Shown here: in pieces, positions 11,433 through 25,127 of the stretch
Numbering within the stretch: position 1 is the first letter of the stretch
Layout: each line of letters begins with the position of its first letter
IMG/VR virus record: IMGVR_UViG_3300006217_002764
Source: a virus
Lineage: Duplodnaviria; Heunggongvirae; Uroviricota; Caudoviricetes
DNA: 32,182 bases
Direction: 5' to 3' (one strand)
The notes under the pieces: model-generated
Told to the model about the DNA's origin: nothing
What the model saw: the letters and a program-made list of their open reading frames with translations, nothing else
Databases searched by the model: none
Program-made: the position numbers and the translations under genes

Positions 11433-12296
11433 TCAGCTTTCCATGTCGCACTCCATAAGGATGCACGTGAAGTCATCTTCGTCGATCGTGTCCAGATTCG
11501 CGTGGATGTTCGTGTTGCGCCACCTGCCGGTACCGTAGTCCACATACTCGTCGAGCGTGTCCACGATCCTTCGCTGCGTCTCGTCGGACAACGCCACCAT
11601 GCCGTTGCCCGAATACTCCGCCACCTGATCCTCGATGTCCGCCCTGCTGGAGAAATCCGGTCTGACGGAAGCGCCACGCGCATCAGAGACCGTCAAAAAT
11701 CGCAGCGGCCCATCATGGTCTTCCGGATCATAGCCGGGCGCGTACAGGGTTGCGCTCGAATACGCCGCTTCCGAATCGTAATCAACCTCCGCCGCATATC
11801 CCGAACCGTCGTCGAACAGATTGCGTGCGAACGCGTATGTCGTGTCGCGCTCTTCCATGTGGTCGAGCACGTCATCGGGGGTCAGGCCGGTGCCACGGAA
11901 GTCGCAATCGACGATGGCGGCCGCATCCCAATGCGTGCTGGACACGTCGGCGTCATGAAAATCACAGTTCGCGAGGGTCGCATTGCGCAGCTCCACATCC
12001 GACAGGTCCGCTTGCGACAGGTCGGAGCTGTACAGTCCGGCGCCACGCATGTCCGAGCCGGACAGATCCGCGCCGCGCAGGTTTGTGTGCCAGAATTCGC
12101 AGGCGCGCAGGTCGGCGTCATGGAGATCGGCTGCGGACAGGTCATGGAAGGAGAAGTTCCTCTCCCTGAGGTCTATGCCGCTGAAATCGGGGCGGGCGTT
12201 CGCAGTCCCGCATGCCGCTTTCAGCCGCGTGTTGCCCATGTCGGCGAAGGTGCCGTCCGGGTTGCGCCGGTGCTGGGTTTCGTTGAATCCTCCCAT
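11433..12296 (-). CDS. Pentapeptide-repeat protein with short N-terminal motif and acidic C-terminal domain, 287 aa
   Basis: About 18-20 A(D/N)LXX-type repeats (ADLHD ADLRA ... ADLSG SDMRG); GAAGGAA RBS. Confidence 0.9.
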   Translation of the reverse strand: MGGFNETQHRRNPDGTFADMGNTRLKAACGTANARPDFSGIDLRERNFSFHDLSAADLHDADLRACEFWHTNLRGADLSGSDMRGAGLYSSDLSQADLSDVELRNATLANCDFHDADVSSTHWDAAAIVDCDFRGTGLTPDDVLDHMEERDTTYAFARNLFDDGSGYAAEVDYDSEAAYSSATLYAPGYDPEDHDGPLRFLTVSDARGASVRPDFSSRADIEDQVAEYSGNGMVALSDETQRRIVDTLDEYVDYGTGRWRNTNIHANLDTIDEDDFTCILMECDMES

Positions 12297-12342
12297 GGTG
12301 GTTTCCTTCCATTTTGGCGTACGTCATTGTCCTGTAAGTAGG

Positions 12343-12366
12343 TTTGTGTACGCTTTCAGAATATCA
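12343..12366 (-). promoter_or_regulatory. Shared promoter motif upstream of the pentapeptide gene
   Basis: TGA TATTCT GA AAG CGTACACAAA. Confidence 0.65.
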
Positions 12367-12528
12367 TCTAGCGAGGTCGGCCCAGTCTTGATTGTCTTTG
12401 TCGCGGAAGATCGCGCCGATACGCCAATAGGCCGTCACTACAGCGCAGACTAAGGCGAATGCGAGTGCATCTCCGATATTGCGCACGCATGACGATGCCT
12501 TGTTTATGAAGATAATGTTTTTGTGCAT
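12364..12528 (-). CDS. Leaderless 54-aa single-TM peptide (below the ORF-track cutoff)
   Basis: MHKNIIFINKASSCVRNIGDALAFALVCAVVTAYWRIGAIFRDKDNQDWADLAR; ATG 7 nt after TATACT. Confidence 0.6.
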   Translation of the reverse strand: MHKNIIFINKASSCVRNIGDALAFALVCAVVTAYWRIGAIFRDKDNQDWADLAR

Positions 12529-12543
12529 GTGTTCAGTATATCA
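12520..12543 (-). promoter_or_regulatory. Shared promoter motif; the +1 coincides with an ATG
   Basis: TGA TATACT GA ACA CATGCACAAA. Confidence 0.7.
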
Positions 12544-12578
12544 CTGATAAAAGTTCTGGAATCCGAACTGACCCAGAC

Positions 12579-12621
12579 TTGAGGGGGGAGCGATATGTGA
12601 TATGCTGATTGCGTCCACAAA
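12579..12621 (+). promoter_or_regulatory. Shared promoter motif driving the putative ncRNA
   Basis: TTGAGG (12579-12584) ... TGA TATGCT GA TTG CGTCCACAAA. Confidence 0.7.
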
Positions 12622-13110
12622 CCATGGTCGTCCTCCAGACCGAAACGGGGAACGGTCACAGTAACGGAAAGGCTCGGCCACCGAGGTGGTCGAGCCCAAG
12701 AGATAATTGAAAACAGATTCAGTATAACATAGGTCGCGAACATACGCAACCCAGTACTGAAGACCGAGGGAAACAGGGATAGCCCCTCGCGAATCCTCCC
12801 GCCAACGTGTACCCGTCCGATGGGGACGCCGGTCTTCGTGAGATAAAGCCACGAAGCAGCCAGAGCCGAAACAAGGACCGGAGCCGAGGAACGTACCGAC
12901 CAATGCGGGCGCATTAGTAGTGTATGGGTGCGGTGCAGCAATAATCGGACCGCCAACTGCATGTTTCGACCAAACCGTTGATTCGGACACCCATACGTAT
13001 GCCGCCGTGTACGGAACAATACCCGTGCCGAGTGTCTCTTAGGCTCCATACTGCCGCCGCTGGGGAACCAACGGAAAAGACCTCGCCTGAATGAGATCAG
13101 GCGGGCGCCC
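12613..13110 (+). ncRNA. Putative large structured non-coding RNA, ~500 nt, class unassigned
   Basis: Own promoter; no + strand ORF over 28 aa; A-rich linkers; many nested helices and crossing pairings (see findings); ends in hairpin 13082-13105. Confidence 0.65.
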
Positions 13111-13497
13111 CTTCTTCACCACCAACCACCACTAGAGAACCTTCTTGGTTCGCGCTTATGTGCACTGTCATATTCACGAGTCCGCCGCACATGCCTCTCC
13201 TCCCCTAGTTGGTCGTCTTATTCCTTCGCTTAATACCCCCCACCCCCCCGCTGATCCTCCTGTTCTTTTTCGTTTTCCTCTTCGGTTTCCCCTCTGTTGC
13301 GAATCAAGTCATGGTTCTTGGGCAAGAACGATCGTTGCATTGGCCTATTCCCTGTTCCCTTCGACGTGTTGTCACGGGTTGGAGCGATCCGGATGATGCG
13401 ATGGTCTGTCGTGGGGTTGTTTGGGGTGTTGGTGTGTTTCTTGCTTTAGATGTGACGTGGATATTGTCGCGGGGTGTGCGTATCAACCATACTTAAG

Positions 13498-13521
13498 TGC
13501 TATACTGAACTTATCTACAAA
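13498..13521 (+). promoter_or_regulatory. Shared promoter motif
   Basis: TGC TATACT GA ACT TATCTACAAA then AAGGAG RBS. Confidence 0.75.
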
Positions 13522-13535
13522 ACAAGGAGTATGTC

Positions 13536-13817
13536 ATGACCAACCTCGACCACGCCACACGCAGCCTCTACCAGACAGCAATGCGCATCCTCAACCAACA
13601 ACCCCCATGGATCGACCCCTACATGGGCGCCGACTTCACCCACCACACCATCACCATCGCACAGGGGCGCACCCAATACAAAATCAGCTTCGAAGAGACA
13701 CACGGCCTGCTGATCGCCCACATCACCCACAACAGCAAACTAACCCAAGACAAACCAATAGCCACTGAACAGGACGTCGAAACCCTGTTCACCAACATCT
13801 ACCAACAACTCGCCTGA
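13536..13817 (+). CDS. Hypothetical protein, 93 aa
   Basis: AAGGAG RBS, promoter motif upstream. Confidence 0.75.
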   Translation: MTNLDHATRSLYQTAMRILNQQPPWIDPYMGADFTHHTITIAQGRTQYKISFEETHGLLIAHITHNSKLTQDKPIATEQDVETLFTNIYQQLA

Positions 13818-13849
13818 AACCACAAGCAACTAAGAAAGGAACCAGTTCA

Positions 13850-14242
13850 ATGAGAACAAGAATCAGCAAGCACGGCAAGTACCGGATTTATGAGGGTGTC
13901 GAACGGGAAGTGGGTGACATGCTGCAATCCGGCGACCAGTTGACCCTCAATTTTTTCAACGGTAAGCGCGTCACGGTTGAGGTCATCCAGTTGATTCGTG
14001 ACCGTGAAGAGTGGGAGAATGTTATACCGCAGGTGGGGCTCGCCTCCTTTTTCCTCTTCGACACGTTGCTCAGTCAAAGGGGTGATGGGGTTTTCGACAG
14101 GAACAATTATCTTATTCGTAACGGGAAAACCGTGTCCGTGTGGTTTCCCTTTTTGGATGATTCCCCGGTGAAGATCAAGCGTCTTATTCCCCGGTCAGAG
14201 ACGGGGATCACGGGCGACACTGTGCGTGAGGACACTAAGTGA
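13850..14242 (+). CDS. Hypothetical protein, 130 aa
   Basis: AGAAAGGA RBS. Confidence 0.7.
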   Translation: MRTRISKHGKYRIYEGVEREVGDMLQSGDQLTLNFFNGKRVTVEVIQLIRDREEWENVIPQVGLASFFLFDTLLSQRGDGVFDRNNYLIRNGKTVSVWFPFLDDSPVKIKRLIPRSETGITGDTVREDTK

Positions 14243-14258
14243 GGAAACCGCCGTCGAC

Positions 14259-14498
14259 ATGCCCGACAAGCCGGGATTCTGGCGCGACAGGGCCGGCGAC
14301 CTGCTCTTGGCGGACATCACCACCACAAACCGCATCACCCGCCTCCATGCATGGGCGAATAGCCGCCACACGCTCACCAAACTGTTTGCAGACCCTGGCA
14401 ATCCCCAGCGCACCATCCAATTGTCCATCATCGGCCAACCCGTCCAACGCATCGCACAGCGTGCCGCCGACCATTTGCGATTGGTCGCCGCACAGTAA
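14259..14498 (+). CDS. Hypothetical protein, 79 aa
   Basis: GAGGAA RBS before ATG 14259. Confidence 0.6.
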   Translation: MPDKPGFWRDRAGDLLLADITTTNRITRLHAWANSRHTLTKLFADPGNPQRTIQLSIIGQPVQRIAQRAADHLRLVAAQ

Positions 14499-14510
14499 CC
14501 TACATGCCGA

Positions 14511-14602
14511 AAAGAGCGAAGGCCGGGCCAAAACGGACCAGCCTTCGCGCTTTAGTGAGGTAAAGGTACAGGCTAATTTTGCAGTGCCTGTAAGCCTTAA
14601 CC
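14511..14602. terminator. Two adjacent long hairpins between convergent genes
   Basis: GCGAAGGC/GCCTTCGC (14516-14548) with AAAG/CTTT flanks; TACAGGC/GCCTGTA (14567-14592) with AAGG/CCTT flanks. Confidence 0.55.
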
Positions 14603-14614
14603 CTATTCTACCAG

Positions 14615-15010
14615 CTAATCGTTCCCTTTTTTACCCGAAGTATCCACTTCGGCATGACGGCGGAACATCTGACTGTGCATCCAAACAGCGCATGCAGCAA
14701 TCCCATCACACAATGCAACAAAGATCTCGGGCACCCATTCGCGCCAACGCCAAATCGCCGAACCAACCGCCCACAACATCCACAGGATTATCGCAATCAC
14801 GGAGGCAAGCTGTAGGCGCGTCCAAAAACCTCCGCCCTGCCAGACATGGATGGTCGTGGCGGCGATCGGGCGGAACCATTCCCGGAACCCGCTGAGTCGT
14901 TCCGCGCAGAATGGTGCCGCATACTCCCAAGACAGTCGTACGATGACGACGATGACCGCGACAAGCGCCAGTTGGCGCAAACGGTCCATGAATCCGGTTC
15001 GTTCCATCAT
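14615..15010 (-). CDS. Hypothetical membrane protein, 131 aa
   Basis: AAAGGAG RBS; 2-3 TM segments, Trp-rich. Confidence 0.7.
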   Translation of the reverse strand: MMERTGFMDRLRQLALVAVIVVIVRLSWEYAAPFCAERLSGFREWFRPIAATTIHVWQGGGFWTRLQLASVIAIILWMLWAVGSAIWRWREWVPEIFVALCDGIAACAVWMHSQMFRRHAEVDTSGKKGND

Positions 15011-15903
15011 TGTTGGGTCTCCTTTTCGAGTGTGGTGGAATCCGATGAGAGCAGGGTCGCCCCGTTGGAGATGTGCACGGCCATGAAACGTTCCCTGTCC
15101 ATTTGCGCCAGCATGTATGCGACGCGCATGATGGCGTTGTGCCGTGTATGCGTGGGCGTTCCGGTCATGGTCAGGTATGCGCCGTACTGGAGTTCGGCGC
15201 GCAGGTATTCGAGCATCCATTCACGGGGTTGCGTGTCCTCGACCTTGTGGGCAACCAGTACAGCGCGATTCACTAGATCTTGGAACCGGTTTGCCTCGGG
15301 GTCCGCTTGCCTGTCGGGGGCGAACCGGGAGGTCAGGGTACGGCTGGCCTCCTCATAGTCTTCTTGATTGTCGAACAGGTACAGTGTGACGGCCTTTGCG
15401 GGGAGCATATGGACTTGCACCGTTCCGTCTTCCATCTCCTCAGGATCGGCGTCGCTGAACCTTTCATAGAATGCGTCCAGGATTCCATGCGCTTCCCTGT
15501 CGGTTTCCTGATGCAGGCTATCAATGGTCTGCCATGCGTTGCGTGATGGCGTGTAGGTTTCGTCTTTCGATTCCCATCGGCGTTCCGTGCCGATGCTCAC
15601 GCCAAGTCGGGAGGCGAGTTCGTGTTGGGTCAGGCCGCAGTATTCGCGGAGAAATTTGAACTCGGTGTTCGACCGGTTGAGGCGTTGTTCGAGGTCGTGT
15701 CCGGTTCGCAGTTCGTTGGTGTAGAAGTGTTCGATCCGTTGGTATTCCGGTTCATCTTCGATGGTGAGCAGCGCCTGCTGCACTTGGCGGACAGGTAGAT
15801 TGGCGATGGCGTGGTACTCGGCGAGCGGCTTGGCCGCTGGGTCTGGTTGTTCCGCCCATTCGAGGATGCGCCTGAGTTGGCTAGTGATGTCGTCGTGGTT
15901 CAT
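15007..15903 (-). CDS. XRE-HTH protein with DUF1870/Aca2-like C-terminal half, 298 aa
   Basis: FKFLREYCGLTQHELASRLGVSIGTERRWES HTH; downstream VTLYLFDNQEDYE and HNAIMRVAYML; AAAGGAAG RBS. Confidence 0.75.
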   Translation of the reverse strand: MNHDDITSQLRRILEWAEQPDPAAKPLAEYHAIANLPVRQVQQALLTIEDEPEYQRIEHFYTNELRTGHDLEQRLNRSNTEFKFLREYCGLTQHELASRLGVSIGTERRWESKDETYTPSRNAWQTIDSLHQETDREAHGILDAFYERFSDADPEEMEDGTVQVHMLPAKAVTLYLFDNQEDYEEASRTLTSRFAPDRQADPEANRFQDLVNRAVLVAHKVEDTQPREWMLEYLRAELQYGAYLTMTGTPTHTRHNAIMRVAYMLAQMDRERFMAVHISNGATLLSSDSTTLEKETQQ

Positions 15904-15935
15904 GGTGGTCTCACTTCCTTTTTGGTGAGTATAAT

Positions 15936-15976
15936 GTTATCACGTTTTGATAACCAAGTGTACACGAAATGATAAC
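15936..15976. promoter_or_regulatory. Operator-like inverted repeat GTTATCA-N5-TGATAAC plus an extra TGATAAC half-site between divergent promoters
   Basis: 15936-15954 and 15970-15976; TGC-TATACT at 15986-15994 on +. Confidence 0.55.
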
Positions 15977-21234: not shown

Positions 21235-21765
21235 ATGATCAGCTTCACACTCGGCCTCATCCTAGGCTTCATCGCAGTCATCATCGCACCATTCGTCCTG
21301 CTCGGCCTCGGCATCCAAACAGCCCTGGGATTCGTGGACACCCTCGCGGTCTTCTTCTTCGACATCATCATCGGGGGCGCCATCCTCTACATGCTGTTCA
21401 TCTACGGCGCATACTTCGGCACCATGCTCTTCTATCAGATACGCGACAGCCTCGGCAAGGAGAGCGAACCCCAAACAGGCCTCGGCGTCGGGGAGGGTCT
21501 GAAGATCATCTCCATGCCGGCCTTCGTCACCTTCTGCGGCATCGCCGTCTACTGGGTCTTCTTCCACAGGTTCACCGGATATGTCCACGGGCTTTGGATC
21601 ACCGAAGGCGTCATCGTCGCAATCGGCGTCCTGCTCACCGCCATCACCGAACTATGGGGGAAGTCCCTTGCCAAGAGACACGGAAGCGCAGTGAGGCAGA
21701 CCGCAGGCACCGGCCACTCGCAGGCATCCAAACCGGACGACATCGAATACGTCGATATCCACTGA
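21235..21765 (+). CDS. Hypothetical membrane protein, 4-5 TM, 176 aa
   Basis: GAAGGAAAG RBS; hydrophobic segments; terminator follows. Confidence 0.75.
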   Translation: MISFTLGLILGFIAVIIAPFVLLGLGIQTALGFVDTLAVFFFDIIIGGAILYMLFIYGAYFGTMLFYQIRDSLGKESEPQTGLGVGEGLKIISMPAFVTFCGIAVYWVFFHRFTGYVHGLWITEGVIVAIGVLLTAITELWGKSLAKRHGSAVRQTAGTGHSQASKPDDIEYVDIH

Positions 21766-21780
21766 AAAACGACCATCTAC

Positions 21781-21810
21781 AGGGGCATCCCAGACGGGTG
21801 CCCCTTTTTC
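21781..21810 (+). terminator. Intrinsic terminator
   Basis: AGGGGCATCC/GGGTGCCCCT stem followed by TTTT. Confidence 0.8.
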
Positions 21811-21922
21811 GTATCGGATTGGCTGTCTGTTTGACCATGCAACCAATCAATCAGACGATTGAGTGATCGCTCAGACACGCGATTGACTGAATATGTCCAC
21901 AAACACATGGACAATCAGACAC

Positions 21923-22579
21923 ATGCTTCCAACCATCATCACCATCGCCATCATCAAAGGCGGCAGCGGCAAAACCACCACCAGCATGGCCCTCGCCGAA
22001 GGCCTTGCCATGCGAGGTAAAACCGTCACCGTCCTCGACTCCGACAACACCGGTGGCGCAACACTCTGGCAGGAATACGTCGCCAACGAAAACGACCGGC
22101 GCCAACACGACGACCCCAACGCAACCCCCTACGAGCTCGGATTCGACGTGCAACCCGTCAACACCGCACTGCTCGACCGCACACGCATCCTCAACCGGTA
22201 CAAGGATTACGACTACATCATCATCGACACACCACCAAGCGACGCCGGCGTCATGCAAGCCGCACTCGACTGCGCCGACGTGACCATCATCCCCTGCCAA
22301 CCATCCGTAAGCGACATGACCCACGCGGGCAAAACCTACATGGCATGCAGGAACGGCATCGTGCTGCTCACCCGCGTCAAACCACGCACCCGATTGGCGC
22401 GCAACGCCATCGAGGAGCTCGACACCAACGGGATCCCACGGTTCGAAACCGTCATCACCGAACGCGAAGCCATCAAGAACATGTACGGCACCACCCAACG
22501 TGACAAGACCGAATACCCATCCGTCGTGCAGGAACTGCTCGACTACCTCGAATCCCGCACCACCACCGGCAAGGAGTGA
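21923..22579 (+). CDS. parA: ParA-family Walker ATPase (type Ib, no N-terminal HTH); alternative leaderless start at 21893
   Basis: KGGSGKTT deviant Walker A, VLDSD, IIIDTPP Walker B. Confidence 0.92.
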   Translation: MLPTIITIAIIKGGSGKTTTSMALAEGLAMRGKTVTVLDSDNTGGATLWQEYVANENDRRQHDDPNATPYELGFDVQPVNTALLDRTRILNRYKDYDYIIIDTPPSDAGVMQAALDCADVTIIPCQPSVSDMTHAGKTYMACRNGIVLLTRVKPRTRLARNAIEELDTNGIPRFETVITEREAIKNMYGTTQRDKTEYPSVVQELLDYLESRTTTGKE

Positions 22580-24492: not shown

Positions 24493-24980
24493 TCAGCATA
24501 AGTAGAAAGATTCCAATTCCCGGTCTCGTTGAGCCATATGTTTCTGCGCGATCATGACCGCTCGCGCCGTGATGTCCATGTCCGTATCGTCTTCATGGAT
24601 ACGGATTGCCCCACCCTCGTTGAAGTAGGCGTCAAGAGCTTCCGCTGCTTCTGCCTGATACAGTTCAACCTTCTGTCGGACAAGTGGGTTGGAGATGTGT
24701 GATGGGTTGAGCGTTGCAAGCCACATGGTGAGCGCCTTACGGTCGATGACGGTCATACGATATGTTTTTCCGTCTGTTCCAGTTGTGGGGATAATCACCA
24801 CAACTGCCCACTTATGAACTTTGAGCTTTTTAAGCTGGGAGCTGTAGTCGATGCCAAGGTTTTCACAGATTGCTTTTAGTGCAGCATATATGCTGTCGTC
24901 TTCCTGTTGTTGAGCGAGGATGGTTTGTGACTGTGGAACAGTACTTTTACAAGGCCGCGAGTACGGTTGTTGTTTGGCAT
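24493..24980 (-). pseudogene. P22-AR-N antirepressor, frameshifted near 24927 and C-terminally truncated
   Basis: AGAAAGG RBS plus MPNNNRTRGLVKVLFHS in one frame, QTILAQQQEDDSIYAALKAICENLGID...KVELYQAEAAEALDAYF in another; removing a CA duplication joins them. Confidence 0.8.
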
Positions 24981-25037
24981 TGGGAACCTTTCTATGTGCC
25001 ATGTGCCGCAGGGTATCGTTACTACCCTGCGGCGTTT

Positions 25038-25111
25038 TCCCTTTTTCGGGAGCGAATATATATTCCCACTATCGGGAAAAGCTGTCAAGTCGGCATGTCC
25101 CGAAAACGGGA
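25038..25111. promoter_or_regulatory. Three TCCC-N5-CGGGA operators between divergent promoters
   Basis: 25038-25051, 25064-25077, 25098-25111; TTGACA on minus at 25083-25088; TAGAAT on plus at 25115-25120. Confidence 0.7.
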
Positions 25112-25127
25112 GTGTAGAATACTGAGT

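Follow-up and report, generated by a model that had tools for sequence, protein, structure and literature searches.

A probable new structured RNA restricted to one Bifidobacterium plasmid lineage

Analysis of a 32,182-nt stretch of DNA (IMG/VR record IMGVR_UViG_3300006217_002764; hereafter the window) points to a probable new structured RNA that is restricted to one plasmid lineage. We put at about even the chance that this rodent-gut Bifidobacterium megaplasmid carries, on the + strand between ~12613 and ~13113, an independent gene encoding a folded non-coding RNA ~500 nt long, the 5' part of which is overlapped by an antisense RNA of ~50 nt. Promoter motifs, the absence of a conserved open reading frame (ORF), conservation among relatives, substitutions compatible with structure and the absence of any known RNA family are all observed here, and on this basis transcription of the stretch, both ends of the RNA, the antisense RNA and any function are predicted. 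The RNA could possibly represent a new class; the family is so far confined to one narrow plasmid lineage. To our knowledge, few large structured RNAs of unknown function have been described in bacteria, and nearly all of them come from Firmicutes and Proteobacteria. If the prediction is true, this new Bifidobacterium plasmid RNA would come with an antisense partner and an allele-specific recognition patch built in, and would offer a tractable case for learning what large RNAs do for mobile elements, whether in their maintenance, when they become established in a new host or where related plasmids compete.

Results

The original prediction, made from this single sequence, described a discrete, ORF-free + strand unit of ~500 nt running from a promoter to a hairpin. 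That outline is supported by the present analysis, and the conservation and the pattern of substitutions fit a folded RNA. The features of the locus are collected in Table 1.

Table 1. Observed and predicted features of the RNA locus (positions in the window; strand left empty where none is assigned)
Feature	Position	Strand	Remarks
Poly-G tract	12583..12588		Between two divergent promoters, ~-30 to -25 of RNA start; length varies
54-aa ORF, leaderless, one hydrophobic helix	12364..12528	-	Divergent from the RNA
RNA promoter	12598..12621	+	Extended -10 (TG-A-TATGCT), GA, five bases, then TCCACAAA; predicted start 12613 +/- 2
Predicted non-coding RNA, ~500 nt	12613..13113	+	No conserved ORF on either strand; near-invariant core; wobble-type substitutions fit +; in contigs of four RNA libraries
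Micro-ORF, 28 codons, RNA 5' end	12624..12710	+	Open (27-28 codons) in all haplotypes
Hairpin H1, GACCG/CGGTC, 10-nt loop	12638..12657	+	Within invariant 5' segment 12598-12664
Predicted antisense small RNA, ~50 nt	12660..12714	-	17-nt A/U-rich tail, H2 hairpin, then UUUCC
Hypervariable patch (H2, linker, antisense promoter flanks)	12665..12749		20-21% divergence in type B relatives
Hairpin H2, 11 bp, 4-nt loop, two allelic forms	12671..12696		Compensatory changes
Internal promoter TGTTATACTGA	12719..12729	-	Exact member of the 12-copy motif; invariant between two variable patches
Branched region H3 (GAAGACCG/CGGTCTTC around two hairpins) and hairpin H4	12759..12856	+	Helices present; stems without variation
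3' domain closed by GGAGCC/GGCUCC	12880..13047	+	Contains CGUAC/GUACG, AAUGC/GCAUU and 9-bp helix 12922-12930/12988-12996
Terminator hairpin	13082..13105		9 bp on + including one U-G; 7 bp on -
Hypervariable pyrimidine-rich spacer, end of conserved block	13168..13472		~55-60% alignment identity

The window encodes SSB, WhiB, C5 methylase, CHAP and ParA domains and a pentapeptide protein, and no relaxase or type IV secretion domain was found in it as a sign of conjugation. The RNA is located directly upstream of a leftward operon comprising ssb, the methylase, WhiB and a DNA-mimic-like gene. The 54-aa ORF, whose peptide has a charged tail besides the hydrophobic helix, adjoins the RNA in the 11 related loci considered for this (of 12, all but L005), wherever the contig reaches, and the right flank changes. 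This ORF is intact in all nine loci examined, L005 included, and its nucleotide changes are commoner in nonsynonymous than in synonymous codons, with no purifying selection.

Twelve related loci were fetched, and the locus was placed on about 240 public contigs via a proxy ORF cluster (P0001/P0002), which comprises 80 protein variants. Divergence in the 364-nt core is 0-2%, apart from the inversion of one loop, and reaches 3.8% in L005; the neighbours diverge by 3-10% (ssb 3-4%, the 54-aa ORF 4-8%, the pentapeptide gene 8-10%). The promoter together with the 5' 52 nt of the RNA (12598-12664) displays 0% divergence in four relatives, with both flanks at ~20%. Likewise, the first 100 residues of the proxy ORF, equivalent to 300 nt of the core, are invariant save for three singleton changes (21 variants, about 240 contigs), and the core is kept in several lineages with differing flanks. 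In BLAST comparisons the match to the relatives breaks off at 13167 and is taken up again at 13473. Downstream of the RNA the relatives vary, some having the 93-aa gene and others a restriction-modification gene, and a 3-kb deletion also occurs; the RNA unit is consequently not tied as a leader to any single gene. The plasmid is a mosaic with respect to divergence, which is only about 1% in some coding stretches as well, and recombination could therefore explain part of the conservation.

The promoter signature reported upstream of the RNA is real. Its core, TGNTANNCTGA, is found in 12 copies in the window, one of them at 12598(+), against 0.35 expected from shuffles, and it is accompanied by a CCACAAA box at fixed spacing. 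The RNA promoter, which is invariant across all relatives, agrees with the other units in the spacing to this box. Since a CCACAAA box at the start site is common to the promoter type of the element, the RNA probably shares its regulation with ssb, with the pentapeptide DNA-mimic-like gene and with further units. The poly-G tract that precedes it measures G6 in the window, G5 in L002, G13 in L004 and G7 in L073-L076, and has five extra G in the RNA-library contig of run X7; at this site the proxy-ORF variants show P/PP/PPP differences and frame shifts.

Concerning coding potential, the statement that no + strand ORF exceeds 28 aa holds for ATG starts but not for GTG and TTG starts, which give + strand ORFs of 33, 36, 38 and 40 aa. 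In L075 the 36-aa ORF is interrupted by a stop codon, and all changes in the 40-aa ORF alter the protein. The minus strand of the region contains two longer ORFs, of 181 and 149 aa, which were absent from the first account of this DNA and display no conservation. In fact, no minus-strand frame is kept in homologues: the 181-aa ORF, without a Pfam match, is broken by a C3/C4 indel at 12750-12752 and by the changes in poly-G length. No Shine-Dalgarno sequence precedes the 28-codon micro-ORF at the 5' end, whereas the other promoter units have one, and translation of this micro-ORF is doubtful because there is no ribosome-binding site. The substitution C12632A is synonymous in this micro-ORF, the C-terminal half of which changes freely and is frame-shifted in type B. 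Among the stop-to-stop + strand frames of the long RNA no hydrophobic ORF was found.

All of the helices proposed from the single sequence are present at the positions proposed. In contrast, two of the crossing pairings that had been considered feasible, CGG/CCG and TGGTCG/CGACCA(12967), are contradicted by three substitutions in relatives. The suggestion that G-U pairs favour the + strand does not hold for static folds, and consensus folds give 165 pairs and a lower energy on the minus strand versus 134 pairs on the + strand, the covariation term being alike (-1.58 vs -1.50 for the two strands); it does hold for the substitutions found in relatives. All five helix substitutions outside H2 (12737, 12885, 12895, 12912 and 12989) produce G-U on + and a mismatch on -; four of these five wobble sites fall in helices that had been proposed from one sequence, and a 50:50 null gives ~0.03. 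Four helices of the 3' domain have one variable pair each (12885, 12895, 12912, 12989), changing in every case from Watson-Crick to G-U on +. The four substitutions of L005 in the H3/H4 region (12791, 12820, 12842 and 12849) all lie in loops or linkers, where most of the other core substitutions are also placed, and C12632A disrupts one pair of a predicted long-range 5' helix. The folding energy is better than that of shuffled controls (z = -2.60, 0/100 shuffles as good), but the minus strand performs equally (z = -2.78), and with the 7th rank among 62 windows of 500 nt across the element the energy is unremarkable. The placement of substitutions on single-sequence folds is marginal for both strands (P = 0.02-0.15). 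As the relatives belong to one narrow lineage with few haplotypes, they allow no statistically sound covariation.

The two allelic forms of H2 differ by two double compensatory changes (G-C to A-U and A-U to G-C) and by one change from G-U to G-C, and two C-A mismatches of type B on the + strand correspond to G-U pairs on the minus strand. On the minus strand the hairpin is stable in both alleles, with loops CUCG and UUCG, energies of -21 and -24 kcal/mol and z = -3.5 and -4.6. The 5' 67 nt, with 0% divergence, and the core, with 0-2%, contrast with the hypervariable patch around H2, and this patch has also received a 12-nt insertion in L075/L076 and a 4-nt deletion in the contig of run X6. 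The antisense promoter copy, at 12729-12719 (-), is found about 100 nt downstream of the sense start and is one of three leftward promoters that lie 186 and 177 nt apart. The predicted antisense RNA would start 7 nt past the -10 hexamer, and the minus strand has a terminator-like site; its body coincides with the sole hypervariable patch, and its promoter is invariant.

At the 3' end, the hairpin announced at 13081-13105 is present. Its loop reads ATGAGA in some haplotypes and the exact reverse complement TCTCAT in others, the stem remaining unchanged. Terminator prediction assigns the hairpin to the minus strand owing to a TCTTTTCC tail, the + tail being a weak U-tract and the poorer of the two, and the hairpin may be active in both directions. 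The RNA stretch is present in contigs of four RNA-labelled libraries from two studies, such contigs being able to contain DNA and giving no strand. One RNA-library contig stops at 13113, 8 nt past the stem, which is a weak hint from a single study.

With regard to coverage elsewhere, the contigs of runs X6, X7, X9 and X13 have no cover over 13272-15941, and neither uncovered parts nor contig depth can rank expression. Cover in X13 is limited to the ssb region and 12708-13113, the contig having its left end at 12708.

Membership in ROOL, GOLLD, OLE, raiA, HEARO or the group I/II introns, which had been put forward for comparison, was not borne out, as no match to any of 4227 Rfam families was obtained by cmscan, either for the whole window at gathering scores or for 12400-13400 at E <= 10 with permissive filters (0 matches in both). 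No tRNA or tmRNA was detected by ARAGORN in the whole window. The RNA stretch gave no match to PLSDB plasmids and GenBank phages by blastn in distant mode, and no homologue outside this plasmid lineage was found in the searches made. A tblastn search of plasmids with the pentapeptide and 93-aa neighbours returned unrelated pentapeptide proteins only, or nothing. Pattern scans of metagenome contigs revealed one further relative (L005) and one random match; those of genome contigs yielded nothing by the pentapeptide protein and unrelated matches only by the promoter motif, and those of viral contigs nothing or a random match. A covariance model of the 3' domain (R1) recovered only the window copy among 30 loci, and nothing in four IMG/VR records of 90-217 kb or in pMP7017. 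Comparison of the RNA with five IMG/VR records carrying the promoter motif resulted in chance BLAST matches of 14-16 nt only, and the 11-mer complementarity of the RNA within the window was limited to the promoter motif and chance-level matches. No partner protein was recognized among the neighbours by PADLOC, NCBIfam or PHROGs, and GGA motifs, as in a CsrA sponge, were judged by eye not to exceed expectation.

The plasmid pMP7017, reached via the SSB search, was discarded as a relative of the locus; its ssb region is not syntenic and it has no match to the RNA. No more than a tmRNA and a manA motif is reported in its published transcriptome (PMC10832533).

Discussion

As the most likely mechanism, we hypothesize that the long RNA would be transcribed from the element's own promoter type and its transcript ended by the hairpin, the conserved 3' 400 nt forming a folded body that would bind a partner. 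The small antisense RNA would pair with H2 and the linker and in this way set the amount or the activity of the long RNA, and the allele-specific patch would make sense/antisense recognition specific to each plasmid variant, as happens in plasmid systems under antisense control. We may further speculate, as a long shot, that actinobacterial mobile elements have a new class of large structured RNAs, of which this one would be the first member. It would be switched on together with establishment/anti-restriction-type genes, would work on its own (one example being a decoy RNA directed at host defence, another an RNA scaffold/assembly) and would be held in check by its own antisense RNA and by the length-variable poly-G tract of its promoter.

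Another explanation is that no working RNA body exists and that the stretch is a leader, the mRNA of the 28-codon micro-ORF, or DNA kept alike by recent recombination between plasmid variants. The mosaic divergence, the weak structure statistics and a micro-ORF that is open in all haplotypes and tolerates C12632A as a synonymous change would be in accordance with it; we nevertheless consider it improbable, given that the core is kept across lineages with different flanks, that 5/5 helix substitutions are wobble-compatible on the + strand, and that the micro-ORF, devoid of a ribosome-binding site, covers the first 100 nt only, and that the genes downstream of the unit vary. It is also quite unlikely that we are dealing with a large 'ornate' RNA of the ROOL/GOLLD kind whose action depends on nothing but its three-dimensional shape, perhaps through self-assembly into a multimer, and whose antisense promoter is incidental. 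RNAs of that kind are described as forming RNA-only assemblies in a preprint (10.1101/2024.12.08.627333), and a ~500-nt stretch with many helices, no protein and an almost frozen core on a mobile element resembles them, but the lack of an Rfam match at E <= 10, the unremarkable folding energy, the contradiction of two crossing pairings and the very narrow distribution all speak against this assignment.

The proximity of the 54-aa ORF raises the alternative that the RNA is one half of a maintenance module resembling type I toxin-antitoxin systems, in which the long RNA or the antisense pair would control transcripts that start at the 12729 promoter and run into this ORF. The long RNA would, over its first 100 nt, find its complement in such read-through transcripts from 12729(-), and the ORF, with its hydrophobic helix and charged tail, stands beside the RNA wherever the contig reaches; however, its changes fall mostly in nonsynonymous codons, its own promoter would give a leaderless mRNA with nothing to pair with, the long RNA itself carries no hydrophobic ORF, L017, a distant relative of the peptide, is without such an RNA beside it, and a simple antitoxin would leave 400 nt of frozen sequence unexplained, so that we regard this alternative as rather doubtful (a global RNA-RNA duplex prediction between the long RNA and the 54-aa mRNA is meaningless at such length). 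Replication or copy control of the ColE1 RNA II/RNA I type, in which the long RNA would serve as the pre-primer and be inhibited by the antisense RNA, appears very improbable. It would account for a ~500-nt sense RNA that has an antisense promoter some 100 nt past its start and for an overlap region that is allele-specific, like an incompatibility determinant, and related elements have a RepA_C module between ssb and a 92-aa gene, the position occupied here by this RNA; yet the predicted sense RNA is terminator-ended, the DNA past 13167 is hypervariable and offers no conserved 3' origin, and no Rfam match, RNAI included, was obtained. Besides, RNA II/RNA I systems of the ColE1 type are not known from Actinobacteria. 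Hardly to be expected is an element that acts at the DNA level by folding as single-stranded DNA; ahead of the ssb operon this could be a promoter of the Frpo/ssi type, an oriT or a single-strand origin. Promoters of the single-strand kind have been described upstream of ssb (PMC11541004) and the stretch lies just upstream of the leftward ssb/methylase/WhiB/DNA-mimic-like operon, but no long hairpin with -35 and -10 boxes was found, the inverted repeats of 12250-13550 being facing promoters and short arms only, ordinary double-strand promoters are present, wobble substitutions suit RNA over DNA pairing, and 500 nt is far above the length of such sites.

The reading preferred here, a folded RNA with an antisense partner, can be compared with several known systems. 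The position upstream of an ssb-containing operon of establishment-type genes is shared with Frpo/ssi elements, which differ in that here no long promoter-bearing hairpin exists, the promoters are normal double-strand ones and the substitutions fit RNA pairing. Staphylococcus aureus RNAIII, an RNA of 514 nt that encodes the 26-aa delta-haemolysin, is likewise an RNA of ~500 nt that forms many stem-loops and has a short ORF close to its 5' end, although there is no sequence or model similarity and translation of the 28-codon ORF is questionable in the present case. The ColE1 RNA II/RNA I pair resembles what is predicted for this locus, where the sense RNA would be long and folded, a short antisense RNA would start about 100 nt in and the overlap is variable and allele-specific, whereas the sense RNA predicted here ends in a terminator followed by hypervariable DNA and has no match to the Rfam family RNAI. 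Similarly, hok/sok and other type I loci of plasmids combine a folded RNA of ~400-500 nt, a short antisense RNA over its 5' part and a small adjoining hydrophobic ORF, but in the window no toxin-like ORF is found on the long RNA and the 54-aa ORF belongs to a divergent transcript and is not under purifying selection. ROOL and GOLLD are Rfam families from prophages and plasmids of Firmicutes. The RNA predicted here differs from them in having no covariance-model match, an actinobacterial host, a single plasmid lineage so far and a predicted antisense partner, and resembles them in its length of several hundred nucleotides, in its many helices, in yielding no protein and in forming a unit of a mobile element that is equipped with a promoter and a terminator of its own.

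Locus and promoter context

For the region 12613-13110 (+), the most likely reading is a genuine gene, restricted to one lineage, whose product is a folded RNA of about 500 nt and which has a predicted cis-antisense partner; the evidence for an RNA gene is good but indirect, and the family is narrow. The unit occupies part of an interval of roughly 1 kb between a leftward and a rightward run of genes (see table) and, as the original prediction had claimed, it is headed by the same promoter type as the coding units, a copy of TGNTANNCTGA at 12598(+), from which a start at about 12613 is predicted. The window has twelve copies of this core, where shuffled sequence would give 0.35; in most copies a gap of five bases leads to TCCACAAA, or to a sequence close to it, ahead of a ribosome-binding site and a gene. 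Within 12300-13600 only five extended -10 sites occur, every one of the TGNTANNCTGA type, and the three leftward ones lie in tandem (12355-12729), 186 and 177 nt apart.

Since the signature TGnTATACTGA-N5-TCCACAAA is present in 28 IMG/VR contigs (L037-L064; 44-217 kb; similar G+C, 0.51-0.56) and has no match in Bifidobacterium records, searched as one genome per species, it is a mark of a group of large elements and not of the ordinary promoters of the host. The distribution suggests that these elements, large and of Bifidobacterium type, form a family with a common promoter and operator, or with a sigma factor or regulator of their own. Because the RNA is driven by the shared promoter/operator type of the element, it is probably co-regulated with ssb and with the DNA-mimic-like gene, which encodes the pentapeptide-repeat protein. 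A comparable logic is found in p576, in which a plasmid repressor has operators in several establishment promoters, leading to transient expression after transfer (PMC6294495).

Features of the locus and divergence among relatives
Feature	Position	Strand	Remark	Divergence from window
Extended -10 site	12598	+	heads RNA unit	
Extended -10 site	13498	+		
Extended -10 site	12366	-		
Extended -10 site	12543	-		
Extended -10 site	12729	-	inside RNA unit	
54-aa ORF	12528-12364	-	left gene run	4-8%
Pentapeptide-repeat protein	11433-12296	-	same left run	8-10% (nucleotide)
SSB (ssb)		-	same left run	3-4%
WhiB		-	same left run	
Nucleotidase, CHAP-domain protein, C5 methylase			farther left of RNA unit	
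93-aa ORF	13536		right of RNA unit, first gene of rightward run	
Promoter + 5' 52 nt				0% in 4/4 relatives compared
Patch	12665-12749			20-21% in type B relatives
Core	12750-13113			1.6-2.2%; 3.8% in related locus L005
Variable helix pairs	12885-13042, 12895-13010, 12905-12912, 12929-12989, 12737-12746			

The left flank keeps the 54-aa ORF and ssb across haplotypes, whereas the right flank changes and shows the 93-aa gene, a type IIG restriction-modification gene or a 3-kb deletion. In some haplotypes (L073/L074, 1-1024) the restriction-modification gene encodes about 1250 aa and runs towards the RNA terminator. Related smaller elements (L009, L013, L014) lack the RNA, and their 92-aa gene is preceded by a RepA_C replication module and an HTH gene. 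The pentapeptide-repeat protein, which has an acidic tail, is highly variable among haplotypes (287 aa; split into 223 + 63 aa; 201, 200 or 189 aa), and this fits engagement with host defences.

A poly-G tract (12583-12588) separates the RNA promoter from the divergent promoter of the 54-aa ORF. Its length differs across haplotypes and RNA-library contigs (G5 to G13); the tract could switch promoter strength by strand slippage, or the variation could be noise of assembly. In a strain of one mouse-gut study an insertion lies just upstream of the RNA -10 box; it is probably an IS element, given its imperfect inverted ends, starting GGTTATACGCCAAAA, and a 9-bp target duplication of 12591-12599, and one variant of the minus-strand translation (P0146, 7 contigs) reads into the same foreign sequence. 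Contig L017 encodes a peptide distantly related to the 54-aa one. At 81-487 it has nine iteron-like copies of ATGCCGATAGTCCAC, and four of these are spaced at exactly 22 bp. The copies are similar to the RNA promoter (GATATGCTGAT...GTCCACAAACC) but have three bases fewer in the spacer; a Rep-like or DnaA-like protein may bind at the CCACA box.

Conservation and coding potential

Twelve related loci were fetched through neighbouring proteins, through translations of a minus-strand frame over the RNA locus, and by one pattern scan, and the stretch is contained in 20 runs from 10 studies of mouse and rat gut. One inversion of the terminator loop accounts for six of the core differences: by haplotype, 13091-13096 reads ATGAGA or its exact reverse complement TCTCAT, with the stem unchanged (hairpin-loop inversion). 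Beyond 13167 the alignment is almost lost up to the next promoter at 13473.

The original prediction allowed plus-strand ORFs of at most 28 aa, which holds for ATG starts (28 codons) but not once GTG or TTG is admitted as a start (up to 40 codons), and it did not mention minus-strand ORFs of 181 and 149 aa. The 181-aa ORF has no Pfam match, and its sole database relatives are translations of the same locus, 21 variants on about 240 contigs. Its frame is not kept among these relatives, being lost past residue 100 through a C3/C4 indel at 12750-12752 and poly-G length changes at 12583-12588. Gene callers placed no gene at the RNA locus in three relatives (L002, L003, L008). On the plus strand, a 36-aa ORF carries a stop codon in one relative (L075), and all changes in a 40-aa ORF are protein-altering.

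Fold and predicted antisense unit

All helices of the original prediction were found in place, as was its terminal hairpin. The unit does fold better than shuffles on the plus strand (z = -2.60), but the minus strand does so too (z = -2.78), and by folding energy the stretch ranks 7th of 62 same-size windows; folding energy alone therefore says little about the unit. On the plus strand, the 500-nt windows 21613-22112, 24613-25112 and 1613-2112 exceed the unit itself in folding against shuffles (z = -3.5 to -4.5), the first two on both strands and located at the parA promoter region and the antirepressor switch. Covariation terms of consensus folds are equal on both strands, and a substitution-placement test with single-sequence folds is marginal, again on both.

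The informative test sets individual substitutions against the helices that had been written from one sequence. The hairpin at 12671-12696 (H2), with two allelic forms, types A and B, shows two double compensatory changes, and outside it all five variable helix pairs (see table) exchange Watson-Crick and G-U pairing on the plus strand, changes that on the minus strand would leave A opposite C (probability about 0.03 under a 50:50 null, by our arithmetic). Other core substitutions (12781, 12791, 12820, 12842, 12849, 12891) fall in loops or linkers of the same model. The optional crossing pairings CGG/CCG and TGGTCG/CGACCA (12967) are contradicted by disruptive changes at 12932, 12968 and 12971, and, in the computed fold, C12632A disrupts one base pair of the long-range helix at the 5' end. 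Overall, this gives moderate support, far from proof, both for a folded plus-strand RNA and against reading the unit from the minus strand or as a feature of the DNA alone.

The sequence on either side of the 12729(-) promoter varies, but the promoter itself does not. From it, an antisense RNA of about 50 nt is predicted to start near 12714 and to comprise a 17-nt A/U-rich tail and H2 in its minus-strand form, followed by UUUCC, an arrangement that a simple scan rates as terminator-like. On this strand the H2 loops are CUCG (type A) and UUCG (type B), and the hairpin is stable in both alleles (-21 and -24 kcal/mol); type B pairs perfectly here, with two C-A mismatches on the plus strand. The predicted antisense RNA coincides with the sole hypervariable part of the unit, which can in addition take up 12 nt or lose 4 nt, a pattern that we infer to be the same as in antisense control regions of related plasmids, where the diverging overlap sets specificity. 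We hypothesize that the RNA would work through its frozen 3' 400 nt, as its body, and that the antisense RNA and the variable patch would control it.

The stretch is also found in assembled contigs of four libraries recorded as RNA, from two studies, and one contig spans 12708-13113, ending 8 nt past the terminator stem. This is a weak hint of transcription, because the contigs carry neither strand nor level and the libraries may include DNA.

Alternative explanations and relation to known RNAs

An ornate, self-assembling RNA is one rival. The classes named in the original prediction (ROOL, GOLLD, OLE, raiA, HEARO, group I/II introns) received no support, as no Rfam family matched the stretch even at E <= 10; no tRNA or tmRNA was detected either. 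The unit might instead be a leader or a micro-ORF mRNA: the 28-codon 5' ORF is the only plus-strand ORF open in all haplotypes. Against this, it is devoid of the ribosome-binding site that other promoter units possess, and its ATG is part of the CCACAAACCA motif common to other promoters. Conservation might also reflect recombination, and caution is warranted, since divergence is mosaic along the plasmid and some coding stretches are likewise only about 1% diverged.

A type I toxin-antitoxin-like link between the RNA and the 54-aa peptide is a further rival. ColE1-like replicon control is unlikely, because a terminator ends the sense unit and the DNA downstream of it is hypervariable. A single-strand DNA promoter or origin is also unlikely, given that no promoter-bearing hairpin was found and that the substitutions follow a wobble pattern.

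No DNA similar to the stretch was found in plasmids and phages or in pMP7017. Among IMG/VR records with the promoter motif, a covariance model of the 3' domain had no match in four large ones and BLAST found no similar DNA in five, and pattern scans of metagenomes, genomes and viruses returned nothing similar beyond the same lineage. If real, the folded RNA represents a new family that shows no detectable relation to those already catalogued; its general kind is a known one, that of mobile-element RNAs with antisense partners or of large RNAs of unknown function.
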